From Patescibacteria group bacterium (GTDB taxonomy: Bacteria > Patescibacteriota > Microgenomatia > UBA1400 > PJMF01), in the NCBI GenBank assembly GCA_045541795.1, contig JAZQJV010000003.1:1623-65622 (forward strand): DNA of 64,000 nt. The letters are read 5' to 3'. Below, piece by piece: positions 1 to 33,100 of this stretch. Every line of letters starts with the position of its first letter. Positions within the stretch are counted from its first letter, which is position 1. The notes under the pieces are model-generated. The model was not told the DNA's origin, searched no databases, and saw nothing but the letters and a program-made list of their open reading frames with translations. A program made the translations under genes and the position numbers.

Positions 1-1154
1 ATAGTTTTTTACTGATGGATGATCCAGAGTACAAGCAGCAAAATATTGCACTAGCCAATAATAGTCCCAAGACAGCGCTGGCCGGAGCGACACCACGACT
101 GATAGACGAGTGGCAGTTGGCGCCAAAGTTGTGGGATGCGGTACGTTTTGAGGTAGATCAGCGTGGACTGCCGTCACAATTTATCCTGACTGGCTCAGCC
201 GTACCTTTTGATATGACAGCGGTAGATCACTCAGGCACAGGGAGGATTGCATCATTATTGATGCGGCCAATGAGCCTTTTTGAATCTGGAGATTCTAGCG
301 GCAGCGTGAGTCTATCTGGACTATTTGCACAACCAGAACAAATAACTGGCACGAGCGACCTAAATCTGGAAAGACTGGCTTTTCTCACGTGCCGTGGTGG
401 CTGGCCAAAAGCGGTGGATTATAACAGCAACAAGGCACTCACTTTAGCGAAAACCTACTATGAGGGTTTGATAGAAAACGATATTATGCGTGTAGACGGC
501 ATACGGCGTAGCCGCAATATCGCCAATCGGATCTTGCGATCTTATGCCCGTTTCCAGGCGCAGCAAGTATCGCTGGAAAACATCAGAAAAGACACTGCTG
601 CCGGAGACGGTACAAGCTTAGGTATTGATACAGTTTACGATTACGTGGAAGCATTGCGTAAACTTTTTATCATCGAGGACTCACCGGCATGGAACCCTAA
701 CTTACGCTCAAAGGCAGCAATCCGGACTTCCGACACTAGGTATTTTGTTGATCCGTCCATCGCCACACAGGCTCTAGGCGTAAGCCCCCGTGACCTGATC
801 CAAGATTTACGGACTTTTGGATTTTTGTTTGAGACACTTTGCATCCGTGATTTGCGAGTTTATGCCGATGTAAAGGGTAAAAGTGTAAGTCATTACCGCG
901 ACAGCAACGGACTCGAGTGTGACAGCGTGATTCATTCTCAAGACGGCGAGTACGGGCTTATAGAAATAAAACTCGGCTCTGATGACGAGTCAATTAATCA
1001 GGCTGTGAAAACATTGCACGATATGGAAAAGGTGATTGATGACGAGGTGATGAGCAAGCCGTCATTCCTGATGATTTTGGTGGGTAACGGGCCGTACGCC
1101 TATCGGCGCGAGGACGGGATTTATGTGGTGCCGGTGGGCTGTTTGCGGGAGTGA
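1..1154 (+). CDS. AAA+ ATPase, DUF4143 family; C-terminal part, 5' end cut by the window edge
   Basis: The ORF 15..1154 is open to the window start. The ILTGSAVPFDM...GRIASLLMRPMSLFE segment matches the AAA_14-DUF4143 linker. It is paralogous to the ORFs at 24870 and 50065. Confidence 0.6.
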   Translation, partial: SFLLMDDPEYKQQNIALANNSPKTALAGATPRLIDEWQLAPKLWDAVRFEVDQRGLPSQFILTGSAVPFDMTAVDHSGTGRIASLLMRPMSLFESGDSSGSVSLSGLFAQPEQITGTSDLNLERLAFLTCRGGWPKAVDYNSNKALTLAKTYYEGLIENDIMRVDGIRRSRNIANRILRSYARFQAQQVSLENIRKDTAAGDGTSLGIDTVYDYVEALRKLFIIEDSPAWNPNLRSKAAIRTSDTRYFVDPSIATQALGVSPRDLIQDLRTFGFLFETLCIRDLRVYADVKGKSVSHYRDSNGLECDSVIHSQDGEYGLIEIKLGSDDESINQAVKTLHDMEKVIDDEVMSKPSFLMILVGNGPYAYRREDGIYVVPVGCLRE

Positions 1155-1158
1155 ATAC

Positions 1159-2973
1159 TCACATCTCCCTTTTCGCCGCCACACCCAGGCAGGCAAGCGC
1201 ATCTACGAGTACCGTCTGCGTGGCGGTGGCCGCCGCCATCATCAAGCGAGAGTGAGCAGGATCGGCCGTATCCAAGAGCTTGCGCGGCTGGCTCCAGAGA
1301 GCGTGGAAAGCGGCGGCCAGCTCATACAGGTAAGTGACTAAGATATACGGCGCGCGCTCGCGCGCACTCAGAGCGATGACACCCGGATACCGGGCGAGCG
1401 CGCGAGCCAGCGGCCGCAGTACAGTGAGTTCATCACTATCAGTGATCAGGAGTGCCGTATCGGCGGCCTGAAACTGGTAATCCTCACCAAAGAGTTTGCG
1501 GTACTGGCGAGACAATGAATACGTGCGCGTGGCGGCATACTGGATGTAATAGACCGGATTGTCACGGGAGCGCTCACGCACACGCACCAGATCAAAGGTC
1601 ATCGGTGTGTTGGCAGACTTCGTGAGGATGAAAAGTTTGAGTTCGTCTACGTCTACCTGGGCGAGGACATCGCGCAAAAGTAAAAAGTTGCCGGCTCTTT
1701 TGGACATTTTGTACGGCTGACCATCGCGCTCGAGACTGACGAGTTGCATCAACTGGACTTCTAGATGAGTGCGGCCGGACGAGAGCGCACTCACGGCCGC
1801 CTGTAGGCGGGCGACATAGCCGCCGTGGTCGGCGCCAAAAAGATTAAGGAGGACGGGGTAGCCACGGTGGATTTTGTCAAAGTGGTAAGCGATGTCACTG
1901 GCAAAATAAGTGGTAGTGCCGTCTGAGCGCGCCACCACGCGGTCACGGTCATCGCCGTAAGCGGTGGAGCGGAAAATGGTCTGAAGGCCGTCATCATGGC
2001 GTGATTTTTCTTCCTCAGCTTCATTGGCGGGACCACCTAGCGGCGCTTGTAGCTCACCCTGATACAAACAGGGTAACTGCCTGGTGATGCCGTCTTCATC
2101 CGTGACGGGACACGTCTGGCTGGCCAGCTGAGCCAAGGCCTGGCGCACGCTCCCCTGCTCCACGAGTGCTGTCTCAGACGTAAAACGGTCAAATTCTAGG
2201 CCGAGCAGGGTAAGGTCGGCGCGGATCTGATCGAGCATAGAGGCGACAGCTTCATCCTTGAAACGGGCAAAAAAACTGTCTTCATCCAGATCTGCAAACT
2301 GGTCGCCATACTGATCGTGCCAGGCGGCGGCCAGCGGCAGCAAGTAGTCGCCCGGATAGCAGCCCTCAGGGACATTTTGGCCCTGGTGGCGGCCGCAAGC
2401 TTGCTGGTAGCGGAATTGCAGCGAGCGCAGCAGCGTGCGGATCTGCACGCCGTAGTCATTGACATAATACTCCGTGGTGACGCGGTAGCCGGCTTTGGTG
2501 AGCAAGCGCGCGAGCGCGAGACCCAAGACGGCGCCACGCGTGTGGCCGATATGCAAGGGGCCGGTGGGGTTGGCAGAGATGAATTCTAGTAAAATGTCTG
2601 CTGGGGCGGCCGGGTCAGCATCTGGCGGTGGGACGGCCGGCGCACCAAAACGGCGACCAGCAGTGATGACGCCGGCAAAGAAATCAGCCCAAGCGGCAGG
2701 CGTGAAGGAAATATTGACGTAAGCGCCGGCGGGCGCGGCCGACTGGACAAAAGGGAGCGCGGTAAATTTCTCCGCTAAGTCGGCAGCGATCGCCTGTGGC
2801 GGCCGGTGCAAAGCGCCGGCCAAAACCATAGCGGCATTGGTGGCGTAGTCAGCGTCTAGGTGTGCGGGTGGCAGCGAAAAGCGGAGCTTGCTGGCGACCG
2901 ACTGGAAGTCGTCGCCAGCAAAATTGGCGATGACGGCCGTAAGGTCCCTCTGGGCGCGGGCAAAAATATCCAT
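1159..2973 (-). CDS. argS: arginine--tRNA ligase
   Basis: 604 aa with HIGH motif (PLHIGHTRGAVLG), KMSK motif (KMSKRAGNF), and an anticodon-binding C-terminal domain. Confidence 0.9.
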   Translation of the reverse strand: MDIFARAQRDLTAVIANFAGDDFQSVASKLRFSLPPAHLDADYATNAAMVLAGALHRPPQAIAADLAEKFTALPFVQSAAPAGAYVNISFTPAAWADFFAGVITAGRRFGAPAVPPPDADPAAPADILLEFISANPTGPLHIGHTRGAVLGLALARLLTKAGYRVTTEYYVNDYGVQIRTLLRSLQFRYQQACGRHQGQNVPEGCYPGDYLLPLAAAWHDQYGDQFADLDEDSFFARFKDEAVASMLDQIRADLTLLGLEFDRFTSETALVEQGSVRQALAQLASQTCPVTDEDGITRQLPCLYQGELQAPLGGPANEAEEEKSRHDDGLQTIFRSTAYGDDRDRVVARSDGTTTYFASDIAYHFDKIHRGYPVLLNLFGADHGGYVARLQAAVSALSSGRTHLEVQLMQLVSLERDGQPYKMSKRAGNFLLLRDVLAQVDVDELKLFILTKSANTPMTFDLVRVRERSRDNPVYYIQYAATRTYSLSRQYRKLFGEDYQFQAADTALLITDSDELTVLRPLARALARYPGVIALSARERAPYILVTYLYELAAAFHALWSQPRKLLDTADPAHSRLMMAAATATQTVLVDALACLGVAAKREM

Positions 2974-2982
2974 AATGTATTA

Positions 2983-3011
2983 ATTATACCACAAAACGGC
3001 CCTTTTGTCAA
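2983..3011 (-). promoter_or_regulatory. sigma70-type promoter for argS (TTGACA-17-TATAAT, TGTGG extended -10), 9 nt upstream of the ATG
   Basis: Minus-strand TTGACAAAAGGGCCGTTTTGTGGTATAAT. Near-identical to the elements at 7669 and 8603. Confidence 0.5.
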
Positions 3012-3035
3012 GAGGTAATTTCCAGATAAAAAACG

Positions 3036-4202
3036 TTATAGGCTCAGCAGGCTGTCGCCGGAGGTGGCCACACAAAGTTCGCTGTAGAGCCGCTGGAGGC
3101 GGGCGTAGTCACCACGCTGCAGGTAGCGGCCATCCACAAAACGGTCGAGCTGGCCGGCCCAGGAACCAGATTGGACGTAATATTCGGTGTCATGTAGGGC
3201 CTGCCGGCCAGCGTGCACACTGGAGCGGTAATTTTGCCCGACCCGTTTGCCGGCCTTGAGGCCGTAACGGGTGGCGATACCGCCCACAAAAGGAATGCCG
3301 TAGGCGGCGGGCTGCAAGATGGTCTTTTTGTGATTGAGCTGGAGGCACAAGTGGAGCCGCAAAAACTCGTCGATGGCGTCTCGGGCGGCCAAAAGCCGGT
3401 CTTTGTCTGGATCAAGCAGGATCATGTCATCCACATAGCGGCCGTAATACTTGATGCCGAGCACATCTTTGACGAAATGATCGAGTTCTCCCAGATAGAT
3501 ATTGGAAAAAAGTTGACTGGTGAGATTGCCGATGGGGAAGCCGCGGTCGTCTGGGACGCCAAAAAGTGTCTTGTAGGCAGGCAAATCATCCCAGCCGTGG
3601 AGGTCGCCGCGCATACAGACACGGTAGGTAGGTCGAGCGAGGATGATAATGGGCAGGAGGTAGCGGAGCAAATCCATCATTTCTGGTTTGATCCTAGATT
3701 TGGGATCGGTGTACATCCGCTCGATGATCTGGAGCATTTTGCCGTGATGGATGCTAGTGAAATAGCTCTGGATGTCGAGCTTGAGCATCCAGGCGGGGCG
3801 GGTGAAATTGTGCGTCACTCGCCGCTGGAACTCCATGGCGCGCTCCATAGCAAAATGCGTGCCTTTGCCATGGCGGCAAGAGTAAGAATCAAAAATGAAA
3901 TGCCGCTCCCAGTAGGGATTGATGGCGTCAAAAACTAAGTGATGGACCACGCGATCACGGAAGGTGGCAGCAAAAACTTCGCGCTTTTTGGGCTCGGTGA
4001 CGATAAAGGCAATACTGGGCCCCAGCTCGTAAGTACGCGCAGCCAGATCGCGGTAGAGAGTGTAGAGATTGCGCTCGAGGTCAAGCTCAAAAAGGAGCTG
4101 ATTGGCGGTGGAGCGCTTATGGCGGCGAGCCTCAAAATAAGCAGTAAAAAGACGGTCAAAAATCCACTCCTGTTCTAATCCTACGGGATGGTGAACAATC
4201 AT
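3036..4202 (-). CDS. diversity-generating retroelement (DGR) reverse transcriptase
   Basis: 388 aa with RT motifs including YVDDMILL. The motif-4 region reads GFPIGNLTSQLFSNIYL, carrying the DGR-specific I/LGxxxSQ in place of QGxxxSP. A TR/VR pair lies immediately upstream on the same strand. Confidence 0.85.
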   Translation of the reverse strand: MIVHHPVGLEQEWIFDRLFTAYFEARRHKRSTANQLLFELDLERNLYTLYRDLAARTYELGPSIAFIVTEPKKREVFAATFRDRVVHHLVFDAINPYWERHFIFDSYSCRHGKGTHFAMERAMEFQRRVTHNFTRPAWMLKLDIQSYFTSIHHGKMLQIIERMYTDPKSRIKPEMMDLLRYLLPIIILARPTYRVCMRGDLHGWDDLPAYKTLFGVPDDRGFPIGNLTSQLFSNIYLGELDHFVKDVLGIKYYGRYVDDMILLDPDKDRLLAARDAIDEFLRLHLCLQLNHKKTILQPAAYGIPFVGGIATRYGLKAGKRVGQNYRSSVHAGRQALHDTEYYVQSGSWAGQLDRFVDGRYLQRGDYARLQRLYSELCVATSGDSLLSL

Positions 4203-5197
4203 TGGTTTTCGCTATCTGATTCGAATTGATGATCGGTTTTATTTTGCCAAGCGGCGAGGCTCTCATCCACCAGTACTTTGTATTTCATGAGCGTCGCCAG
4301 GTTTTCTGCCCGGAAAGCGCCGCATTCATACGCCAGGCGTAGGAGGAAAGAGACGGTGGCCATATCATCCTGGAGGTTGGAGAGATGCCGCCTGGAGACG
4401 TACCAAGTGTGATCTTGATCAGCGTCATACAGACAGCGGAAATTGTTTTCCATATCTATGATGAGCTGTAAGATAGTGGGTTGGAGCGAGGCTTTGTAAG
4501 CATGCTGGAAATGATTGGTACGGATGAAGGCTTCTTTGAGAAATTGGAAGAGGTAATTATACGTCTCCACGTTGGCATAGATAGGCCGGAGCTTGGCGAC
4601 GTTGGAGTCTTGAGCGATACATTCTTGGGCGTACCAGCGCTGGTAAGCTTTATTGTCTATGGGCGGCAGGCCTTTGAGGACGAGGCCATAGCAGTCTCCT
4701 TTTTTACCTTCGATCAGCTCCCAGGTGGCGTTATTATCAAGCGCACGCTCAAAAACGGCAGGCAGCGAGGCGACAGGAATACCTACACGCAGCAGGCGCT
4801 CGTCTTTTTGTGGCGGCTTGTCGCCGCGTACGGTAAGCCCCGGGCGCAGCAGCGTCAGCATCCGGTAAGCGCTGACATTATACGCATTGAGAAAATCACC
4901 AGTCGTCCAGAGGTAGACTTCGTTTTTGTTCATGGATTCTGCTTTGTAGATGTATTGGAGGTCGGCCGGGATGACTTTGACGTCGAGCACCGGGAGGGTC
5001 ACGCCCTTAGCGATCAGACGCTCGTACGCATCGCGGGCGGTTTTATTCACTGGGATTTTGGGGGATTTGGGATCCGGCGAGGAGGGAAAAGTGGAAGCCT
5101 TAGAGGCTTTATCTGGCATGACTATCCTTTCTATAATAATTCTTATGCCTAATTTGTTTACTAGAAGAATTGATAGCCGCCAGATGCGAGACGGCAA
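4199..5197 (-). CDS. hypothetical protein, candidate DGR accessory factor (not Avd-like in size)
   Basis: The 332-aa ORF overlaps the RT start by 4 nt (ATGA coupling) and sits between TR and RT. No recognisable family. The true start may be an internal Met (M27). Confidence 0.45.
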   Translation of the reverse strand: MPSRIWRLSILLVNKLGIRIIIERIVMPDKASKASTFPSSPDPKSPKIPVNKTARDAYERLIAKGVTLPVLDVKVIPADLQYIYKAESMNKNEVYLWTTGDFLNAYNVSAYRMLTLLRPGLTVRGDKPPQKDERLLRVGIPVASLPAVFERALDNNATWELIEGKKGDCYGLVLKGLPPIDNKAYQRWYAQECIAQDSNVAKLRPIYANVETYNYLFQFLKEAFIRTNHFQHAYKASLQPTILQLIIDMENNFRCLYDADQDHTWYVSRRHLSNLQDDMATVSFLLRLAYECGAFRAENLATLMKYKVLVDESLAAWQNKTDHQFESDSENQ

Positions 5198-5228
5198 CTA
5201 GATAAGGAGTGCGGGCAGAATTAAATGT

Positions 5229-5412
5229 GTCTTGGAGGCAGCGCACCGAAAACCCGTTGTACTTATTGTTGTTGTTCTGCGGGTAGATATTACTAGAATT
5301 CAAGTTCAGGTTGTACGCGTTCGTCGTTGAGTTAAGAGAGCTAGACCACCAGTTGGCGTTCGAGCCTTGATTGTTCAGCGAGGAACCATTGGCGTTGCCT
5401 GAGATAGCAGAC
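5229..5412 (-). repeat. DGR template repeat (TR)
   Basis: 184 bp, identical to 6236..6419 except 16 positions. Every one is T on the plus strand (A on the coding strand) in TR. It encodes the N-rich (AAC) version of the VR peptide. Confidence 0.85.
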
Positions 5413-6219
5413 AGACTCCGGGAAACCTGGGCGAGCCGCACGGCCCAGCCAGCCGAAATCCCAACAACCTGGTGCCAGCCGGGTACACGGCTATGCTGCA
5501 GTTGATCGCTCACCCACGGGGAAGCAAAAGAAGAAAAAGAAGAAAAGAGGCAGTGACAAGTACACAGACCAACAGCCCGTGTACACACTGGTGTGGACTT
5601 ACGCGCGGATGGCATCCACCCGAACTTGTAGCGCAAGTAGATCAATAGACTCAATCCTTCATGAGCCGGCGTCAGATAACCGCCAAAAGGTCGCAGTCGG
5701 CCAAGCCGACCAGCGAGCCCGGGCCCGACTACCCGCTCCTTACCTAGTTGTACCTCTAACTTAAAGAGCCACCCAGCTGGCGCAGCCAGCGGATCGGATA
5801 GACCACCCGCCAGCTCGGCTGGGTGCCGTCTCATAACCGCTCCAGTATAGCAGACATGCTGGCTCTTGTCAAGAGTGAATTGGGAGGAGCTGGTTTTTGA
5901 TATAGTTTGTATCATTTGTCCTTTTTTGGGCGCGGCCTGCGGCGCTTAGCGCCGCAGGCCATTGCCCTGCATCTTAGAGAGTAGAAAGTTTAGCGTTGGC
6001 TAGTAGTAGTTCCTTCAGGTGCCCTACCGGGAACCCTCGGGTGTCTGGGGCTGGCGCCAGATGGACGTCGCTGGGGCGGGCCGCAATGCGTGCGGCCGCC
6101 GGAGAGCTCCTATCTGGCCTGCCGCCAGGAGTTACCTGATCTAAAGTGTTTGGTGGTAAAGTTTTTTGTTCTTTCATATTTACTTTCTTAGTGATCTGTT
6201 TGATATAGTTTGCCATAAA

Positions 6220-7455
6220 TTAATAGTCTTGGAGGCAGCGCACCGAAAACCCGTAGTACTTAGCGTTGTTGTTCTGCGGGTAGATATTACTAGAACCCAA
6301 GCCCAGGTTGTACGCGCCCGTCGTTGAGTTAAGAGAGCTAGACCACCAGAAGGCGCCCGAGCCTTGATAGTACAGCGAGGAACCATGGGCGTTGCCTGAG
6401 ATAGCAGACTTCCCCGAGGCATTCCAAGCATTGGCGCCGCTAGTCCTAAACCAATTCCATGACGTAGCACAATCGCTACTCGTACAACCATGACTCACAC
6501 TACTTCCTTGGACCGCGTCGGCCAATGCTTGGAATTCTTCTTTGGTGGGTACATGCCAACCAATGGGACAAATATCATGGGTGGCTTCAGTAGTCCCATT
6601 GGTACGGTTATTATATGTACCATTGTAATTGGCAGTGGAATTATTCATCGCCGCCTGCCAGTTATAAAGGAAACCGTCATAGTTACCGCCGTCGGCAGCA
6701 TTACGGCAGATACCGTAGTAGCCGGAGGCGACTTTGTTTTGGACGGAGCCTTGGTAGCTAGCATTGAAATCATTACCCGTGAGGCTGGCACAATTGCCAA
6801 ATTGGAGGTTTTGAGCCATCCAGCAGTGACCATCTATAAATTTGCGGATGATGTATTGCTTATTGTCACGGGCATCGGTGAGCGTGCCCACGGTGGTGTA
6901 GCCAGTGCGCGATGTGGGCGTGGCAAATTGAGCACAGGCTGCCTTGGTAAAAGATTGCATGGTGGAACCGATACAAGTACACTGCTCGGTGGCACTATTA
7001 TAGATATAGGCATCCGAGCAGTCACAGCCCACACCATTGCCGATGCATTTACTAGTGGTGGCGTCCCAGGTGCTATTGTCGCCACAGTAATTGGAGCCGG
7101 TACACTGTTGGGTGTAGGCATTGGCAGAGGTGAAGCATTTGGCGTAGGCATTGGGATAGGTGACGCCGTCGGGGCAAGCGGTGGTGGCGGCAGACGTCCA
7201 GGTGTTATCGGCCGTGCGGATGAGTTTTAGTTGGCCGCCAGTGGCGATCACAGAGGCGAGGTCGGTATCAATGAGTTTGCGGGTGGTAGTGGTAGAAGAG
7301 GCAGCGTGGGCGGTGGGAATCAACCCCTCCCCTCTGGCACTGCGTGCCACCTCCCCTCCGTAAGGGGAGGAGTTATAAGAAGTGGGGGCTATGAGGGCTC
7401 GCCCCCCCCCAACGCATTTTGGGCCACCCCAAGGATGGCGGCAAGCACCAGACAA
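6220..7455 (-). CDS. DGR target (variable) protein; Cys-rich N-region plus C-terminal FISUMP/Fib_succ_major domain (C-type lectin fold)
   Basis: Motifs HCWMAQNL, FLYNWQAA, ICPIGWHVPT, WWSSS, GFSVRCLQDY. The VR covers the last ~60 codons. The ORF as called starts at a TTG. An ATG plus signal peptide lies upstream in another frame. Confidence 0.8.
   Translation of the reverse strand: MSGACRHPWGGPKCVGGGRALIAPTSYNSSPYGGEVARSARGEGLIPTAHAASSTTTTRKLIDTDLASVIATGGQLKLIRTADNTWTSAATTACPDGVTYPNAYAKCFTSANAYTQQCTGSNYCGDNSTWDATTSKCIGNGVGCDCSDAYIYNSATEQCTCIGSTMQSFTKAACAQFATPTSRTGYTTVGTLTDARDNKQYIIRKFIDGHCWMAQNLQFGNCASLTGNDFNASYQGSVQNKVASGYYGICRNAADGGNYDGFLYNWQAAMNNSTANYNGTYNNRTNGTTEATHDICPIGWHVPTKEEFQALADAVQGSSVSHGCTSSDCATSWNWFRTSGANAWNASGKSAISGNAHGSSLYYQGSGAFWWSSSLNSTTGAYNLGLGSSNIYPQNNNAKYYGFSVRCLQDY
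6236..6419 (-). repeat. DGR variable repeat (VR) at the 3' end of the target gene
   Basis: Aligned with TR 5229..5412. Differences are A->N only: H/N, YY/NN, GAF/NAN, G/N, G/N, A/N, Y/N. Confidence 0.85.
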
Positions 7456-7605: not shown

Positions 7606-7668
7606 GGGGATCGCGGAGCTAAGATGAGATGGCGGGCGTTTGGGTGATTAGAGGCTGGATATTGCCTC

Positions 7669-7697
7669 TTGACAAAATGGTAGTTTTGTGGTATAAT
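7669..7697 (+). promoter_or_regulatory. consensus promoter TTGACAAAATGGTAGTTTTGTGGTATAAT with no downstream plus-strand gene
   Basis: Perfect -35/-10 with a 17-nt spacer. It is one member of a family of three near-identical 29-bp elements. It points antisense to the tRNA region. Confidence 0.45.
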
Positions 7698-8543: not shown

Positions 8544-8602
8544 TGAATAACGCCAAACACATTTGAGACTGGAAAAGGAACTCAACTGGAATTTTTAATA
8601 TC

Positions 8603-8631
8603 TTGACAAAATGGCAGTTTTGTGATATAAT
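8603..8631 (+). promoter_or_regulatory. consensus promoter TTGACAAAATGGCAGTTTTGTGATATAAT driving ORF 8717
   Basis: TTGACA-17-TATAAT. The spacer contains the inverted repeat ACAAAA/TTTTGT. Confidence 0.6.
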
Positions 8632-8716: not shown

Positions 8717-9106
8717 ATGCAGCGAGAAAAGAGAGGTAAAAAATCTGGTGGTTTAGTGTTGAGGAAACATGAGCAGTCAACGGTAGAGTTTTTGCAGGAA
8801 AAGGGTTTCAATTTGAAAGTGATACCTCCCAGTAACGTGACAGGAGTCAAAACTCCCGACCTTTTGATCTCTGGTATCCCATGGGAGATGAAATCCATTA
8901 CTAAGTCAAACACAAAGACAATCGAAAGAAGCTTTGGGCACGGACTCAAGCAAGCACCAAACTTGATATATGACTTGCGCAACCTCAAAACTGACGAAGC
9001 GGAGCAAGCAGTTAGGATATTGCAATGGTGCATAAAGAAGTTTCACCACGCGAAACAGCTCATGGTTATTACCAAAGATAGACAACTGCTCAAGTTGGAA
9101 AAGTGA
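8717..9106 (+). CDS. small PD-(D/E)xK-type nuclease-like protein (orphan)
   Basis: 129 aa. TPDLLISGIPWEMKS supplies a PD...ExK catalytic triad pattern. No partner gene is evident. Confidence 0.5.
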   Translation: MQREKRGKKSGGLVLRKHEQSTVEFLQEKGFNLKVIPPSNVTGVKTPDLLISGIPWEMKSITKSNTKTIERSFGHGLKQAPNLIYDLRNLKTDEAEQAVRILQWCIKKFHHAKQLMVITKDRQLLKLEK

Positions 9107-10115: not shown

Positions 10116-13100
10116 ATGACAACAGAAGGAGCCAGATTATCAGCACAGGATCTAGGATTACCAGGTTGGAATTACGATCCCGAGCTGTCTAGACATGATG
10201 TTTTAACGGATACCGAATTGACTGAGGCATATGATGACAATGAGCGCCATGACGAAATAAATAAACTACGAAGTACGTACGAGCGTATCACTCATGAGTA
10301 TCAGCAGGATGGCGATACCGAGCTTTTGCTATCAGAGCTAAAGGTCCTATCTGCCTCAGCAGAGAAATTAACTAAAAAGTACCGTGAGCAGCGCATGGCA
10401 ATTTTGAAGAGCACTGAAAAAGACCCGGATGAAGTTTCACTTGCTTCTGCTCATTTAGCTTTCACAGCGATAAAGGATGTACATGACCTCACGGATAAAA
10501 TCAACGGGATCGTGGACACCGTCAGCGGCGAGGCAACAGCGCAAAAAGCGCCACTGGGATCGGAAACGAGGGCCGCTGGCGAGCCGACCAAGACAGAGCA
10601 GGCAGAGCCGGAAGTAAAACCGGCGGCAGAATCAACGCCAGAAGAAAAGCCGGCCGACAATGATACCGCCAAAACCGAGACTCAGCAAGAGAGCAAACCG
10701 GCCGAGAAGGAAGAACGGCCGCAAGAAAAACAAGAGGAAAAACCGGAAGAAAAGCTACCTTTCCAGCCAGAGCAAGTGAAGGTAAAAGGTGCAGACGGCA
10801 AAGAAAGACTGCTCAAACCTGAAGAGTTGGCTTGGTGGCAACCCGGCAAGACAGTAGAATGTATCAGTGGCTGGGATAAAATCGGCAGTGTGGCCGACGG
10901 CGGAATAGATAACGGCAGTCATATGTTCCGACTAGATAGCGGGACAGGACAGCTGATACTGCGCACGGCAGACGTGCCACCTACAGACAATGATAGCGTG
11001 GTGGATGAGCGTTTCCGCCCGCGGCGATTGGGAGAGATAAAAGAAATACAGGTACTCACGAGCGAGTGGAGCCAGACCAAGCAAGACGAGGCCGCACGGC
11101 GAAATGAGTATGAAGTGCTAGTCCGGACAAAAGACGGACGGGAATACCGTTTTGTGAGTACAGACAGCGAGATGTCACGTGAGCAAGCGCGAGTGGCTTA
11201 TGAGCAAGAGCAACAGGAGCAGCGTCAGGCCGCCCAGGCGCGAGAAGAAGAGCGGACTAAAGCTATCGAAGGCCACGAAAAAGAGCTGGCGATGGCGGAG
11301 CTTTTGGGGATCAAGGAAGATCTACACCAGATCAGCGAGGCGGCCACTATCGGCCTGCGTGACGACGGCAGCAACCGGCTGGATGAGAACAGTTTTGACA
11401 GTCTCCACCGAGAAATCCGCCGGAGCGTACTCACCAGGCGTCTGGAGACAGTGACAGCCATGCTAGAAGGTGGCGCGAGCGAGGACGAGCGGCGGGAGCT
11501 GGTAGCCGAGCAGGCGGCAATCCGTGAAGAGTTAAGTAAACTCAATGCTGCCGGGACGGCGCTAGAATTTGGTGAAATCAAAGATAAAAACGGGAAATTG
11601 ATCCTGAAGGCACGCGAGTACCAAAATTACCGTGAAGCGCTCAAAGGGGAAATCAAGGCCAGATCTACCCAACTAGAGCGTTACGCCGAGCGCGCCAACA
11701 AAAAAGATGGCCTCAAACCGCATGAGAGGTACGCTTTTGAGGAAGCACGCAAGGCTCTGGATGAGGCGATCGCCGTACAGCTAGAATATGAAGCCATAGC
11801 CGAGTATGATAGTTACCAGGCGCGGATAAATGCTATCAGCGAGGCGACGATCACTTACAAAGGTAGTGATAATAAAGACGTGACGGTGGATTTGCGCTCA
11901 GACGAAAAGAGCAAAAACGGAGAGATTTTATCTTTGCAGGGCAAACTTGCCGAGCTGGGTGACCAGATCGCGGCGGCGCAAGATTTCATCACTCGGATAG
12001 AGCAAAACCCTAATGCCCGTTATGACAAGCAGACGGTGGCAGAGGTAAAAGAAAAACGAGAACTGATCAAAGCCAAAAACAAGCAAGCTGAGCAAATCCG
12101 TGAAGTAATGCGCCAGCTGGAAGAAAAAGCCAGGAATTTGATGACTTTGCGTCAGGTCTTTTACCTACAAGCGCACGGTCGGGTGGAAGAAGAAGATGCC
12201 GCTCGCAGTGAGATGGGTATCGCTTATGACGTGACCAACGGCAATAATGAGTTTTTTAGCTATGCACTCACGGTGGCTTTAGGCAGCAGCGGTATCCAGG
12301 AGCAGTTAAAAGACTCTACGCTCAATGCAGACGGCCTGGCAGACATTTTGATCGGCCGGATGACACAAATTCATGACGACGCCGAGCGAGAATCCTCCCG
12401 TGGCAGCGGTATCGCTCGGGCGGTAAACTCTTTGCGGATGCTGAGTTTGTCTAGTACTTTCATTGATAAGGCTTACTACGGGATCGCAGGCAACGATGGC
12501 GTTTTTTCCAATAAACTCACTAGTGAGATGCTCATGATGTCTGGCGCGCAGCTGCTGCAAGCCAAGCGCAAGGCGCTAGAAGCCGTGCGCTACCGGGCGG
12601 GAGATTATGGTAGCACCAGCATAGACGATCAAGAAAATGCGCGCTGGCAAAAATTGAGAGCGGCCGAGGAAAATTGGGCAGCGAAAGACGCTGGCTTGAT
12701 GCCCAGAGTGATGGCCGCCGAGGATAATCTTGCTGAGCAAGACAGGAAACATCCGGCGGGATATAAGATCACGGCTGAGATACCGGTGGGTTATGAGTCC
12801 ATAGACCAAGCGATCGCCAGAGATGAGAATGCCCAGCGTGGTCAACAGCGCCGACGGGAAGCAGTAGGGCAGGCCAAGGGACAGCTAGACGACACGGTGG
12901 CGAGCCGGCTGGAGGACTTGCAGCCATACCGGGCAGAAGTCGATAGATACCGGGAAGATGTTTTCGCCAAGTATGACCGGTTGATGAGCGAGTGGGAGAC
13001 GGAAAAGAAGGCACTGAAAGCACAGGTAGACGCCAAGCAGACAGAAATCCAGGGTCTACTCAAGCAAAAGCAAGCACTGGAGGATGAGCGGAGACGTCGG

Positions 13101-15569
13101 CTTTTCCAGCTGGATCAACGGGCAGCCGCTGCCAGTGGTGAAAGTTTGCGCGAGATACAGGATGACCGGGCAGAAGTGATCACCGAGTACTCCGGCGGAC
13201 TAGAGGAAATAAACGAAAAACTGGCGACAACGTACCAAGAGTTGACCGCTCTACAGCCGGAAAAACTGGAAAGTGATGTCAGTTTCCAGGATTGGTTGGC
13301 AGAAAAAGGAATGCAACTTGATGCCGAAGAACTGGAAATTTTGCAGCCGTACTTAGACAAGATGGCCGAGGCCAACCGAGCATTCCAGACGCAGCGGAAA
13401 TTTGTGTCTCAAGTGAAATCCACGTGGCTTTTTACCGTGGTGGGGTCTTTTAACAACAGCAAGATGAGCTTGACGGCGGGTACCAATGAAATGGGTGGCT
13501 TTTTTGGCCGGCTAGATCAGACGAGCCACTTACGGCCAGACGGCGTGTCTAATCCAGAGGTGATGGAGGCAAATGATCTGTGGAATAAAAACTTTGGCAC
13601 GGGGAAGTTTGACGCTGAGGCGCAGCGTTACTTGGGAGAAAATGGGGACTTACAGCGGATAGTAGCAATGTGTGTACAGGAGCTGCGCAACCCGCGGAGT
13701 AAATACTGGGCGGGCAATAGTGACCTGAGTCAGAGTGACGGCGTGCGCAAGCTGGTGGATGAGATGTTTGACACGTACTGCAATACTGAGGGCCGGGAGA
13801 CGATCGGCAAGATGAGTAAGGAGCAGCGAGAGTTTGATAAGCAGCTGGTACTGATAAAAATTGCACGTGATGACTTGGTGCGTAAATACGCCGTGGAGGC
13901 TTACGGCGTGTGGTTTACCGCCCTGAAAAACAAGCAGTGGGACAAGCTGACGCATAGCGGCGTGCTGATGGCACTGACGTATGGACTGGTGAGGGGGAAA
14001 AATGGCAGCATGCGGGCGATGTTGGATTTTATAGATCTGGATGAGATCACGGCTAAAATACAGGCGCAAATAGATAAGTATTATCCGGAGGGCGATCCAG
14101 AAGAAGAAAGGCAATATCGCGGGCTTCAAGAAAAAATCGAGACGGAAGAGTTGATTATGCGCGAAGAAATGCGCAAGAATAATGAAGCCGGCCGCTTGCA
14201 GGCGGAAGAAAGAATTAGTAAGTTGCGCCGGAGTGTCGGAGACTTAGGAAAACGGTACGATCAGATGTCATCACTGGATCTATTGAAGGCGAGAGTACAG
14301 AGACACAAACTTTATTTAGATGCTGCCTTCCCCCATGGAACTTTAGATGAACGTGCTCAAATACGCCAGCAAGCCGTCGATACGAAACGCGAAAATGACG
14401 CAATTATACGTAGAGAACTAGAAAAATCTCAAGAAAACAAGCCTGGCTTAATGAGGAGGATATGGCGGGTGTTTGTTGGCAGCGAGAATCAGCCATCTGT
14501 ACGGGAAGAAACTGTAAAATATCAGTATACCTTTTCGGAAGAGGATTATATAAATACTTTCCTGAAATCTGGGGACGTGGAACTTACTGATCAGCAAATT
14601 CGCGAATTGGTACAGCGAGCCAGAGAACGTGGGGATATAGTTGACGGCCAAACTACCAGATCATCCACTGACTCAAATGGGACAACGAAAACTGAAGTAG
14701 TTGGCTCGCAAACAGTTGAATTTAAACCAATTAAACTCAATCTTAAAGCTGATTATTCATTTAAACCGAGGAAATTTAGTGATGATGCCCCTACAATGGA
14801 TGCTTACCTCAATCAACCTCCAGAAGGCAGGCAAGCAGCCGCCGATTGGCTCGATGCTCATGACGCTTTTGGCGAGATCATCGCTATGTGCAGCAGTCCG
14901 ATAGACAAAGGCTTGATAGAAGACCCGGAAAAACTGGTGGAAGCGATCAATAAGATCAATACCAATTTCTCACGGATTGCCTCGATCGCCCTAGATAATA
15001 GTGATGCTAATATTGCAGGTTTGCCTGGATCGGACGTAAAATATAACTACATGCGCGAAATGGCGGAGGCAGCATATTGCGGCTGGATAGAGAATGTGTT
15101 GCACACAGTTGGTGGGGCGCATCCCAGGCGTTTAATTGATGATGAAGGGATGCCAACCGATAGCAATAAAAAGTACGTCAGAGATTTTAATTCGATCCTA
15201 GCCGCTGTAAGGAGTTCTTTAGGCGACTTGGGTAGCAATTCGAGGAATAAATCAATTTATAACGAGAAAATTCATGCAATCCTAGATCTGAACTCTAAAT
15301 ATTATATGGGTCCAGAACAAGATATATATGAGCCAGATCCTTATGGGGAAGCTGCGTACGCATTCAGATATAAGGATTTTGTGGATGGTAATTTATTGCA
15401 ATATCTAGTAATGGACGTCGGTAAAAAAGTTGGTTATGCTGACTCTCATGGTACTTTGTTTGCGAAATGGAATGAACAAAGTAAGAGGATGGAATTGATA
15501 CCAGGTATGAGAATGCCAGATGAAATCTTACAGGTACTGAGAGAACCACTTACAGATTCTGATGGCTAA
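10116..15569 (+). CDS. giant acidic coiled-coil protein (1817 aa), hypothetical
   Basis: A single uninterrupted ORF. The N-terminus is E/K/P-rich with low complexity, followed by extensive heptad-like segments. No signal peptide or TM segment. Confidence 0.6.
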   Translation: MTTEGARLSAQDLGLPGWNYDPELSRHDVLTDTELTEAYDDNERHDEINKLRSTYERITHEYQQDGDTELLLSELKVLSASAEKLTKKYREQRMAILKSTEKDPDEVSLASAHLAFTAIKDVHDLTDKINGIVDTVSGEATAQKAPLGSETRAAGEPTKTEQAEPEVKPAAESTPEEKPADNDTAKTETQQESKPAEKEERPQEKQEEKPEEKLPFQPEQVKVKGADGKERLLKPEELAWWQPGKTVECISGWDKIGSVADGGIDNGSHMFRLDSGTGQLILRTADVPPTDNDSVVDERFRPRRLGEIKEIQVLTSEWSQTKQDEAARRNEYEVLVRTKDGREYRFVSTDSEMSREQARVAYEQEQQEQRQAAQAREEERTKAIEGHEKELAMAELLGIKEDLHQISEAATIGLRDDGSNRLDENSFDSLHREIRRSVLTRRLETVTAMLEGGASEDERRELVAEQAAIREELSKLNAAGTALEFGEIKDKNGKLILKAREYQNYREALKGEIKARSTQLERYAERANKKDGLKPHERYAFEEARKALDEAIAVQLEYEAIAEYDSYQARINAISEATITYKGSDNKDVTVDLRSDEKSKNGEILSLQGKLAELGDQIAAAQDFITRIEQNPNARYDKQTVAEVKEKRELIKAKNKQAEQIREVMRQLEEKARNLMTLRQVFYLQAHGRVEEEDAARSEMGIAYDVTNGNNEFFSYALTVALGSSGIQEQLKDSTLNADGLADILIGRMTQIHDDAERESSRGSGIARAVNSLRMLSLSSTFIDKAYYGIAGNDGVFSNKLTSEMLMMSGAQLLQAKRKALEAVRYRAGDYGSTSIDDQENARWQKLRAAEENWAAKDAGLMPRVMAAEDNLAEQDRKHPAGYKITAEIPVGYESIDQAIARDENAQRGQQRRREAVGQAKGQLDDTVASRLEDLQPYRAEVDRYREDVFAKYDRLMSEWETEKKALKAQVDAKQTEIQGLLKQKQALEDERRRRLFQLDQRAAAASGESLREIQDDRAEVITEYSGGLEEINEKLATTYQELTALQPEKLESDVSFQDWLAEKGMQLDAEELEILQPYLDKMAEANRAFQTQRKFVSQVKSTWLFTVVGSFNNSKMSLTAGTNEMGGFFGRLDQTSHLRPDGVSNPEVMEANDLWNKNFGTGKFDAEAQRYLGENGDLQRIVAMCVQELRNPRSKYWAGNSDLSQSDGVRKLVDEMFDTYCNTEGRETIGKMSKEQREFDKQLVLIKIARDDLVRKYAVEAYGVWFTALKNKQWDKLTHSGVLMALTYGLVRGKNGSMRAMLDFIDLDEITAKIQAQIDKYYPEGDPEEERQYRGLQEKIETEELIMREEMRKNNEAGRLQAEERISKLRRSVGDLGKRYDQMSSLDLLKARVQRHKLYLDAAFPHGTLDERAQIRQQAVDTKRENDAIIRRELEKSQENKPGLMRRIWRVFVGSENQPSVREETVKYQYTFSEEDYINTFLKSGDVELTDQQIRELVQRARERGDIVDGQTTRSSTDSNGTTKTEVVGSQTVEFKPIKLNLKADYSFKPRKFSDDAPTMDAYLNQPPEGRQAAADWLDAHDAFGEIIAMCSSPIDKGLIEDPEKLVEAINKINTNFSRIASIALDNSDANIAGLPGSDVKYNYMREMAEAAYCGWIENVLHTVGGAHPRRLIDDEGMPTDSNKKYVRDFNSILAAVRSSLGDLGSNSRNKSIYNEKIHAILDLNSKYYMGPEQDIYEPDPYGEAAYAFRYKDFVDGNLLQYLVMDVGKKVGYADSHGTLFAKWNEQSKRMELIPGMRMPDEILQVLREPLTDSDG

Positions 15570-30131: not shown

Positions 30132-33100
30132 CTATGGATTGAGGTCAGGATTGTCGGCGTACATGTAGGCAGAGCTATTGGCGCGGTGGAGCGTGTTGTA
30201 GATCGGGAAGTAGAAGCTGATATTGTAATTCTTGGTGACGCTCATACCGGAGTCATTATCGCGGATAGTAACCGTGTGCGGACCAGGGAAGGTGTAATTG
30301 GTCAGCGTGAGACCAAATTCTTCCACCGGGATGGCAAAGGTAAAGCCAGTCTGCTCGCCAGCAATGGTGCTCACATCGATCGTCTTGACGATGGAGGTGC
30401 CGTTGATCGCCAAGGTAATGGTGAAGTTCTTGGGCACGCTCATGGCGGGAATATAGCCTTCGATGAGAATGTCATCATTGGTGGGCACCAGGCGCACATT
30501 CCAGGTGAGCTCACCGTCGGCCACATTGTCGATCAGATCAATGTAGCTCGGCATACTGGCGTAGTAGTAAGTATCAGTGAAGGTACTCACGTGACCCACA
30601 TTATCCACCGCACAGACATAGAGAGTATGCTGTCCCTCGTCGATGGTGATACCGATATTGGAACCACTGGCGATGGTGGTGCCGCCGGTGCAACTGTCAC
30701 CCAGGCTGTTTTCATTCCAGGCGTAAGCAATGCGAGCGAGACCCGAGAGAGTATCCACCGCCGTGACATCAATATTTTGACGGGTGGAAGTCCAGCCGGG
30801 GACTGCCGGGGTGACTTCGAGCGTGGGCGCGGCGAGGTCAATGCGATTGGCCGGTGAGGTACAAGTGGTAGACACGCCCACATTATTGGTGATGGTCACC
30901 TGGCAGGTGGCGCCGTGGACAGCCACAGCGGTACAAGAGTAGCTATCCTGAGCCATGCCAGACACACCACCGTCAGAATCCGTGAGGACGAAAAGCTGTT
31001 GGTTGGAGACACTCTTCCAGTCTACCGGATCGGCCGGAGTCCAAGTGCCGCAGACAGGAGCCTCAAAGTTGGCGTAAACCGTCTGAGTACTGGTGACCGT
31101 AGTGATGTTGGCGACATTATCTGCCACGGAGACACGGTAACGGTAGCAGTGACCATTGGTCATATTGGCCGTGGCGGTGAGCGTACCGGCTGAGTACGTG
31201 AAGGCAGTATCCTCGTAGGCTGCTCCGGTGAGATCACAGCTAGAAGTGTTACCCGTGGTGACGGTAGTACCCATGATCCGCTCTACTCTCCAGGTGGAGT
31301 CATTGATGCCAGACTGCGTATCGCTGACACCTGTAAGCTGGAGGTTGATAGCACCGTTATTGGTGACGTACTGATCCGTGTAGCCGAGTGAGAAACTGGG
31401 CGCCGTCTGATCGTTGATCACATTGATCCGGCAGCTGGCGGTAGTACCGTTACCATAAGTGTAGACGATGGTGCCAGAGCCAGTGGATTCGGCTGCTTCC
31501 GCCCAGGCGTAGGTCTTGGTGTAAGTACCGGCGCCGCCTTCATGAGTGCCAGTGCCGGCTGGAGTAAGGCTCCAGTTGGCGTTAAATGGCGGATAGTAGA
31601 CACTAGTGATGCCGGAGTCTGGCTCAGCAAGCTGAGTGGTCAATTGGAAGGAACCAGTGCGACCCGTGCTAGCAGCGTAATCATAGCTGGAGTAATAGAG
31701 CGTATCGCTGCCCGCTTGATGCTGATAGTCAGTATTGGTCACTGGCGTGAGGGTACAAGTCAGCGCAGGTGTGGCCGGATCCACCTTATTTTCTGGTGAC
31801 TGACAGACCTTGGTATTGCCAGCGCGATCAGTCAGGGTGACGGAGCAAGTGCTGCCGGTGGTAGCCGCCGTAGTACAAGTGGTCACCAGTCCAGAGCTTA
31901 AGCCCGAGCCAGCATCGCTGGAACCCACGAGGGTGAAAGGCTGACCGCCGCTCGTGCGCCACGGATTCACCTCGGCCGGATCCCAGCTACCGCAGGTGGG
32001 CGCTTCGAGGTCAATGGCGATCTGGCAAGTATCGCCGCTGGCCGTAGACGTGGTAGTAGCTTGATTGCCGACCTTATCCGTGCTGACCAGCAGATAACGA
32101 TAACAGGTATTGGTAGCCGCGCCAGATACAGCGTGATTGGTGACGCCACCCGTAGCGACAATGCTACAGCTATCACTAGTGTCTGCGCAGTCCGCAGTGA
32201 GGTCTGCCGGGTAAGAGCAAGCGCCGCCAGCGAGAGTGCCGATTTGCTGGACGAGATAGCTGGAGGCAGTATCCAGGCCAGAGCCAGAGTACGTGATGCC
32301 GCTGACAGTAGACTCCGGATCGGCGCCATAATCCACCTTGATGGAGAAGGACGAGGAGTTTTGGGCGCCGGCCGGGCAAGTGGTGATGCGGCCAGCTGGA
32401 GCCTGATCGTCATAGACGAGGGTGAAGTCAGTGCTCGCCGCGCGCAGACCATTATTGGCTAGGGCAAGACGATCGGCATAGACAGTCTTATTGGAATCGT
32501 TGAGGTAGTAGACGCGGTAGTAGGTATTGATGTCTGCTCCCGGGATACCGGCCACAGTGGTGGCATCATTGAGGTTTTGGAAGGCAGTGGACGAGATAGT
32601 GCCGCTGGAGCCGCCAGTAGCCGTGGCCAGCACGGTGACATTACTACCACTGGTGGGTGCGTAGTAAGCCGTGGTGGCACCATCATAGTAGAAGTTTTCA
32701 CTGGTGGAGGTGATGGAGTCGATGCTGATTTCAGGCACGTTGGTATCCACGATGAAGGAATTGGTGGACGTGATGACGGCCGTATTGGAGACATTATCTG
32801 TCACGAGCACGCGGTAACGATAGCACTTGCCGTCTACCAAGGTGTCATTGGCCACGATTGCATCCGCAGTGAGGTAGGCGTCATCATAGGTATTGATGGT
32901 GGCATAGTCAGAGCAACCTTCAGCTTCGCTGCACTCGTAATTGCAGGTGTAGTCAGCGACACTGACATCTCCCGTGCCGTCACCAGTGTAAGTAGCCACG
33001 CCGGTAGCACGTTGGATGGTCCAACTCTTGATGCCGGAACCAGAATCCGTGACGCTAGACTTACCCAGTCCCAGCGCGAGCTCACGAGAGCCGGCGCGAT

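Follow-up and report, generated by a model that had tools for sequence, protein, structure and literature searches.

Among the accessory proteins of diversity-generating retroelements (DGRs), two described classes stand closest to the gene considered here, namely the accessory variability determinant (Avd) and the MutS-like protein (MSL). Most DGRs function with Avd alone, whereas MSL is a named accessory class that co-occurs with avd, and DGRs that contain MSL always contain avd as well (Wu et al., 2018, PMC5758913). MSL proteins were described with sizes of 112–283 aa, and the reported isoelectric points (pI) average 9.5 for Avd and 7.2 +/- 1.7 for MSL (Wu et al., 2018). The combination of MSL with avd, known as “Architecture D”, is exemplified by a Legionella DGR and by the Bacteroides DGRs Bfr, Bth and Bun, and three DGR reverse transcriptases (RTs) were found to carry a MutS_I-like C-terminal extension (Wu et al., 2018). 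In Bacteroides, host MutS reduces DGR retrohoming 5–10 fold (bioRxiv 10.1101/2024.11.15.621889). Apart from brief mentions, Wu et al. (2018) was the only source on MSL in the searchable literature, and an MSL-Avd fusion was not found described; the words “fused” and “fusion” are absent from Wu et al. (2018). Because the reported sizes reach from 112 to 283 aa and avd is always present, some of the MSL entries of that study (up to 283 aa) may be MSL-Avd fusions. We describe here a DGR cassette in a stretch of 64,000 nucleotides, hereafter the window, from a Patescibacteria group bacterium (GenBank assembly GCA_045541795.1, contig JAZQJV010000003.1, positions 1,623 to 65,622 of the forward strand). 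Between its template repeat (TR) and its RT gene lies a gene, 5119..4199 on the minus strand, that in all likelihood encodes the cassette’s only accessory protein, a single chain made of an N-terminal MSL module and a C-terminal Avd domain. The gene is thus a fusion of two known modules and not a new accessory family.

The accessory gene, its parts and the spacer that precedes it have the following positions in the window:

4199..5119, minus strand: accessory gene, 306 aa plus stop codon, MSL-Avd fusion protein (codon-position GC, homologues, domain matches, structural model)
4970..5119, minus strand: N-terminal extension, aa 1–50, a basic, partly low-complexity stretch followed by beta-beta-alpha (alignment, AlphaFold secondary structure, pI 9.8)
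4664..4969, minus strand: MSL (MutS-domain-I-like) module, aa ~51–152, with GDFLN aligned to GDFYE of MutS (MutS_I, hhalign)
4220..4585, minus strand: Avd four-helix-bundle domain, aa ~179–300 (PHROG, Pfam in homologues, Foldseek)
5120..5228, minus strand: AT-rich spacer of 109 nt from TR to ATG, holding the motif AAAGGA (codon-position GC; comparable length in homologous loci L006 and L007)

A preliminary description of this DNA, made from the sequence alone, had reported a 332-aa open reading frame (ORF) between TR and RT, about 30 nt downstream of the 3′ end of TR, with a stop codon overlapping the RT start. The frame does exist, from a TTG at 5197 to 4199 on the minus strand (332 codons), and both the distance (31 nt from the end of TR at 5229 to the TTG) and the overlap (ATGA, 4 nt, with an RT gene at 3036..4202) were confirmed, but the protein itself measures 306 aa and most likely starts at ATG 5119, codon 27 of the frame, rather than at TTG 5197. 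Over the first 26 codons GC content is flat and low at all three codon positions (0.33–0.40), while from codon 27 onward it is 0.58/0.37/0.61 at positions 1, 2 and 3, unbroken to the stop and close to the 0.60/0.38/0.66 of the RT gene. An AAAGGA ribosome-binding site lies before this ATG, at 5125–5130. The only near-identical database protein (P0001, from a JGI metagenome, 98% identical) was called at 306 aa from the same methionine, and more distant homologues likewise begin with MP[DT]KA. Between the window and the 98% sister strain, the accessory gene differs by 14 synonymous and 6 non-synonymous codon changes, and the RT gene by 22 and 9. The GC signature, the ribosome-binding site, the starts of the homologues and the synonymous excess together establish 5119..4199 as a real 306-aa gene, and its purifying selection and translational coupling to the RT are supported; the same 4-nt stop/start overlap recurs in the homologous loci L001, L005 and L007.

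The first 26 codons (78 nt) of the long frame probably belong to the spacer and are untranslated. In this respect the preliminary description, which had considered that the 5′ part of the frame might be a structured RNA spacer with an internal methionine start, anticipated the fate of these 78 nt, although the remainder is coding and no spacer structure was found; likewise, codon-position GC contradicts a noncoding interval at 4700–5197 except for 5120–5197. Folding of the spacer gave z = −1.0 in the window and 0 consensus pairs across four loci, and Rfam had no matches anywhere in the 64-kb window at gathering thresholds. None of these three results supports a structured DGR spacer RNA between TR and the ATG.

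The C-terminal half of the protein is recognised as Avd by profile and by fold. The PHROGs family phrog_3206, “Avd protein of DGR”, matches the ORF itself (E 0.001, aa 187–299), and matches the homologues P0005 and P0020 at 1e-10 and 1e-13, respectively. The Pfam family bAvd (PF22296) gave no direct match to the ORF in a single-sequence search; it was matched by 8 of 14 homologues, in their last ~105 residues and over the whole 107-position profile (best E 2e-9). A profile search returned 21 proteins, most of them with a precomputed bAvd match, for which the NCBI name is “four helix bundle protein”. When predicted with a 30-sequence alignment, the AlphaFold2 model reached a pLDDT of 87.1 (a prediction on the single sequence, pLDDT 36.8, was unusable) and shows an alpha/beta domain (aa 9–149) joined by a linker helix to a helical bundle (aa 185–305). 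In a Foldseek search of the PDB the helical half retrieved 2gsc (TM 0.87), 4dwl (TM 0.83) and the Avd chains of 8ub7 (TM 0.81), all with probability 1.00, the superposition on 4dwl having an rmsd of 2.2 A over ~112 columns. The entry 2gsc is Xcc0516, deposited as a conserved hypothetical protein, which we take to be a member of the 23S-IVP family. A search of viral structures in BFVD was topped by entries named “Avd-like protein”, and hhalign related the four-sequence subfamily of the window protein to stand-alone Avd with 85.8% probability. Avd of Bordetella phage BPP-1 (4DWL; RT-Avd-RNA complex 8UB7) is thus comparable in its four-helix-bundle fold, as predicted here by the model, and in being an RT-adjacent DGR accessory, but it shares only 11–12% identity with the window protein, and it is free-standing, highly basic and ~128 aa long, with its gene upstream of TR. 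It had been stated earlier that the ORF shows no recognisable Avd or HRDC features. As for HRDC this stands, no Pfam match at E <= 1 being present in the ORF or its homologues; as for Avd it is true solely of searches with the single sequence in Pfam, NCBIfam and PDB, and is overturned by PHROGs, the family profiles and the structure prediction.

The N-terminal half appears to be related, more remotely, to domain I of MutS. MutS_I is the sole Pfam match of the ORF (E 0.074–0.085) and also matches 4 of 14 fused homologues. With a profile of the N-domain (aa 50–152), 57 stand-alone proteins were retrieved, mostly of 135–180 aa; among 41 such relatives that were scanned, 25 match MutS_I (best 3.2e-6), and no other family has more than one match. 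By hhalign, the N-domain alignment of the fused proteins matched residues 1–131 of E. coli MutS, a query confirmed to be identical to 1E3M, with E 2.2e-4 over 75 columns, and the subfamily of the window protein matched stand-alone MSL with 94.5% probability; when stand-alone MSL proteins alone were aligned, no significant match to E. coli MutS resulted (E 0.073, probability 0.8%). The likeness to MutS domain I (1E3M) consists of a weak profile similarity over ~75 residues, in which the G-x-F of GDFYE and a G-[IF]-P turn are kept. The secondary structure predicted for the module, in the order alpha-beta-beta-alpha-beta-beta-alpha-beta-beta, can be reconciled with that of the MutS segment to which it aligns. 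F76, the equivalent of MutS Phe36, is F in 27 of 30 fused and in 41 of 41 stand-alone sequences. No variation is seen at G113 or, within the stand-alone family, in G-F-P, and W162 of the linker is nearly invariant. Unlike in MutS, domains II–V, the ATPase and the clamp are all missing, and Pfam and NCBIfam scans of the ORF revealed no other MutS domain. The accessory protein is not a mismatch-repair enzyme. Ahead of the MSL module, the 50-aa extension is confined, according to the alignment, to a close subfamily formed by the window protein’s nearest relatives (P0001–P0004).

That the two halves belong together as MSL and Avd is seen from loci in which they are separate genes. In three split loci (L010, L011 and L012), a FISUMP target gene is followed by an MSL gene (164–170 aa), an overlapping Avd gene (112–117 aa) with strong PF22296/PF05635 matches, a gap and an RVT_1 gene; the MSL and avd genes overlap by 17–32 nt in different frames. 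When the fused-family HMM was compared with these stand-alone proteins, MSL fell on positions 38–155 and Avd on positions 163–278, with E 1e-23 to 1e-29. A profile built from the window protein and P0002–P0004 only still matched both halves (E 4e-11 to 4e-5), the MSL proteins of L010, L011 and L012 being hit by the subfamily HMM at E 4e-11 to 5e-8. Since both halves match neighbouring split MSL and Avd genes in the same order, the ORF is a collinear MSL-Avd fusion, in which a linker helix leading into Avd takes the place of the ~55-aa tail at the C-terminus of stand-alone MSL.

At least 30 protein clusters, drawn from independent assemblies and lineages, have the fused form, and their linker is continuous and conserved. 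When 1.84 billion representatives were searched exhaustively with HMMER, ~13 true relatives emerged, whose alignment shows two conserved blocks; the closest three have 41%, 29% and 25% identity, the first of them (P0002) over aa 9–297, and those beyond are 240–280 aa long. Locus searches with the single protein in genome and metagenome contig collections gave no relatives, and the family alignment contains no stretch of 7–10 columns that is conserved. The expectation that homologues would co-occur with DGR RTs was fully borne out, as every readable context shows RVT_1: in L001–L005 the homologue adjoins the RVT_1 gene, and in L008 and L009 the RT lies ~1.9 kb downstream. Two further loci (L006, L007) are cut 2-kb contigs with the same layout as the other homologous loci. 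Where targets are visible in the homologous loci, they are FISUMP/Lcl_C. The close subfamily P0001–P0004 has the order TR, accessory, RT with overlapping genes, and in L004, a fused locus from Bacteroidales, the accessory gene comes after the target and before TR and RT. A separate avd was found in no fused locus. In the window itself, Pfam detected no Avd in neighbouring ORFs, and three HMMs (stand-alone Avd, stand-alone MSL and the fused family) matched only this ORF among 738 six-frame ORFs over 64 kb, so that it is the sole Avd, and the sole MSL, that these profiles find there.

Compared with the split MSL and Avd pairs of Architecture D, to which L010–L012 correspond, the locus shares the two modules, their order, the target class (FISUMP/DUF1566/Lcl_C) and the adjacency to a DGR RT, and the whole-protein pI of 6.96 fits the range reported for MSL. 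It differs in having one 306-aa polypeptide with no separate avd, and in the position of the gene between TR and RT instead of upstream of TR. The fused proteins of 234–293 aa in metagenome-assembled genomes of Bacteroidales and Prevotellaceae (P0014, P0017–P0029) resemble it in both domains, in DGR linkage and in FISUMP/Lcl_C targets. They differ in sequence, with 15–22% identity to the window protein (17–25% for the representatives P0005–P0016), in being without the 50-aa N-terminal extension, in a basic Avd domain (median pI 9.0, against 6.1 here) and, in L004, in a gene upstream of TR. As for the RT-MutS_I fusions (Wu et al., 2018), a MutS_I-like module is covalently joined to the core DGR machinery in both cases; in the window, however, it is joined to Avd, and the 388-aa RT is without the extension.

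Several observations weigh against the assignment of these modules or of their usual functions. The MutS_I score of the ORF, 13.7 bits, is a weak signal below the 20.6-bit cutoff, and the hhalign match of the N-domain to E. coli MutS has a probability of 45%. Profiles of the full family and of the N-domain, searched against PDB sequences, retrieved neither MutS nor Avd and gave chance matches only. The residue equivalent to Glu38 of MutS is N here and N, R or K in the family, and it is E in 0 of 30 fused and 0 of 41 stand-alone sequences; canonical mismatch recognition is therefore not retained. With a pI of 6.1, compared with a median of 9.0 in the fused family, most other members of which are basic, and with 9.3–9.7 in sampled stand-alone Avd proteins, the Avd domain also lacks the strongly basic character reported for Avd, so that its RNA- or RT-binding mode may differ.

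Could the protein instead represent a new family of DGR accessories that has no relationship with Avd, HRDC or MSL? Single-sequence searches of Pfam, NCBIfam and PDB sequences without a significant match speak in its favor, as do the single near-identical protein from a word-indexed search and the small number of relatives from exhaustive HMMER. Yet the PHROG Avd family matches the ORF directly, more than half of the homologues examined carry bAvd, the model superposes on solved Avd structures, and each half matches a gene, MSL or Avd, that stands alone in DGR loci, which makes a new family very improbable. Of the preliminary proposal of a candidate novel DGR accessory, the accessory role, the RT linkage and the coupling have been upheld, and the novelty of the family has given way to Avd and MSL modules. 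Even less credit can be given to the view that the long frame is an artefact, arising either from a frameshift or assembly error that joined MSL and avd, or from a noncoding spacer RNA in the 5′ half followed by a short Avd from an internal methionine. A single indel could indeed fuse the two genes, as they overlap by 17–32 nt in different frames in the split loci, and the 332-codon frame does begin with 78 nt of noncoding appearance. Against this stand the recurrence of the fused form in at least 30 independent clusters with a conserved linker that includes W162, the coding GC that continues from codon 27 to the stop, the predominance of synonymous changes relative to the sister strain, the conservation of the N-domain as a protein (41% identity to P0002) and the spacer’s lack of a significant or conserved fold; the artefact is hardly credible.

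If the protein is accepted as a fusion, it may still be in effect only an Avd, with an N-terminal half that is a degenerate appendage serving oligomerisation or solubility and having no nucleic-acid or mismatch role. Consistent with this, none of the 30 fused and 41 stand-alone sequences has the Glu that completes the Phe-X-Glu motif in MutS. The weakness of the MutS similarity points the same way, as does the fact that most DGRs work with Avd alone (PMC5758913). On the other hand, F76, G113, G-F-P and W162 vary little or not at all between distant lineages, and the module persists as a separate conserved gene beside avd. The invariant positions and the persistence as a separate gene argue for a selected function, and we consider a mere appendage unlikely.

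The other elements of the cassette are listed below:

6220..7455, minus strand: target gene, 411 aa, with a C-terminal FISUMP / Fib_succ_major (C-type-lectin-like) domain (Pfam Fib_succ_major E 2.7e-20; TIGR02145 E 2.3e-25)
6226..6409, minus strand: variable repeat (VR) at the 3′ end of the target gene (184-nt direct repeat, 91% identity with TR)
5229..5412, minus strand: TR, with 53 adenines (184-nt direct repeat paired with VR)
3036..4202, minus strand: DGR RT, 388 aa (RVT_1 E 4.7e-15; IGNLTSQ and YVDD in the translation)
4199..4202, minus strand: ATGA, stop codon of the accessory gene and start codon of the RT gene, 4-nt overlap (ORF coordinates and sequence)
5844..5872, minus strand: promoter-like site TTGACA-17-TATACT with TG, ~430 nt upstream of TR (consensus scan, 11/12 positions)

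On the minus strand the order is target with VR, TR, accessory gene and RT. In the repeat alignment, 16 of 16 mismatches between TR and VR lie at adenines of the former, each in the first or second position of an AAY codon, and because all differences sit at adenines of the copy at 5229–5412, this copy is TR. An IGxxxSQ-type sequence is motif 4 of DGR-type RTs, and YVDD is the catalytic motif; both are present in the 388-aa protein. The closest NCBIfam model of the RT is that of group II intron RTs (E 3.4e-26, under the model cutoff), and a MutS_I-like extension was not found in Pfam and NCBIfam scans. The cassette is a DGR by the adenine rule of TR and VR, the VR at the 3′ end of the target and the RT motif, and apart from the features of the accessory gene it is a typical FISUMP-targeting one. 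In loci L005–L007, the TR DNA is 77–89% identical, whereas the accessory proteins there are 25–41% identical. From its sequence, the site at 5872–5844 is a candidate start of a transcript comprising TR, the accessory gene and RT. Between this site and TR lies a GC-rich stretch of ~420–480 nt (5413–5915, minus strand), possibly a long leader at the 5′ end of the DGR RNA. A 268-aa frame across TR (5109–5915) was considered as a gene and rejected, as neither its translation nor its DNA is conserved outside TR in L005–L007; gene callers have called its equivalent in L001, L005, L006 and L007.

Several observations were made in the surroundings of these genes. Directly downstream of the target gene is an 80-aa ORF without a family match (5974–6216, minus strand), followed by a GC-rich hairpin at 5925–5965 (GGCCTGCGGCGC..GCGCCGCAGGCC) that lies between a T-run and an A-run and could be a bidirectional terminator or a post-VR hairpin as in some DGRs. 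A 43-nt inverted repeat (2983–3025 and 7655–7697, 88% complementary) brackets the whole DGR cassette, and a third copy lies ~0.9 kb further on, at 8600–8631. Each arm contains a perfect outward-facing TTGACA-17-TATAAT promoter and an internal CAAAA..TTTTG palindrome. The repeats were considered as transposon ends, but the third copy and the embedded perfect promoters make a recurrent promoter or operator more likely. The sister locus L001 (JGI 3300011008) has a ~0.8-kb insertion (2959–3774) between RT and argS, absent from the window (2973–2983), that encodes a Gp49-like (toxin-type) protein of 104 aa and a 165-aa partner. A CdiA C-terminal toxin domain (PF18451, E 1.1e-13) was identified in a 129-aa ORF at 8717–9106 (plus strand). 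An ORF of 122 aa overlaps it in antisense, and the pair may be an orphan toxin/immunity module. An AAA_14/DUF4143 ATPase gene (15–1154, plus strand) lies near the DGR, and one also lies beside the distant fused-accessory DGR in the termite-gut-type loci L008/L009, which may be coincidence. The window further contains two giant ORFs of 4574 aa (30132–43856, minus strand) and 1817 aa (10116–15569, plus strand), and no tRNA was reported anywhere in the 64 kb at gathering thresholds. For ArgRS, the best database matches are alphaproteobacterial and ~40% identical, and thus carry no information on the lineage of the host.

As to how the fused protein might act, the site at 5872–5844 could yield one transcript that contains a ~420-nt leader, TR, the spacer, the accessory gene and RT, and the ATGA coupling would tie the synthesis of accessory protein and RT to the same transcript that also carries TR. 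Avd is characterised as a homo-pentamer that binds RT and DGR RNA and is needed for cDNA synthesis. By analogy with Bordetella phage BPP-1, the Avd domain would oligomerise and bind RT together with the TR-containing RNA, and this binding would license adenine-mutagenic cDNA synthesis. More speculatively, the tethered MSL module would bind irregular nucleic acid via its conserved Phe, most plausibly the mismatch-dense heteroduplex of cDNA and VR. Being without the Glu and without an ATPase, MSL would not signal repair; it might rather shield the heteroduplex from host mismatch repair and MutS, or aid the docking of cDNA at VR. The idea of protection or docking is prompted by the finding that host MutS lowers retrohoming (bioRxiv 10.1101/2024.11.15.621889) and by the MutS_I-like extensions on some DGR RTs (Wu et al., 2018). 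We therefore raise, as a tentative and somewhat doubtful proposal, that MSL is a physical subunit of the RT-Avd ribonucleoprotein acting at the least understood step of retrohoming, where it would grip the cDNA:VR heteroduplex with Phe kept and Glu lost, hiding it from MutS or guiding docking, and that the lineage of the window, with its non-basic Avd, its extension and its TR-accessory-RT order, would be a distinct mechanistic variant of DGRs.

Fusions of 240–310 aa are at present annotated as “hypothetical” or “four helix bundle protein” in public databases, and DGR pipelines that seek an Avd of ~120 aa can therefore miss them or call a DGR “Avd-less”. The fusion also offers a compact single-gene construct for probing the role of MSL. 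The joining of MSL and Avd in one chain suggests that the two modules work together on the RT, and its recurrence constitutes “Rosetta-stone” evidence for MSL acting within the RT-Avd complex.

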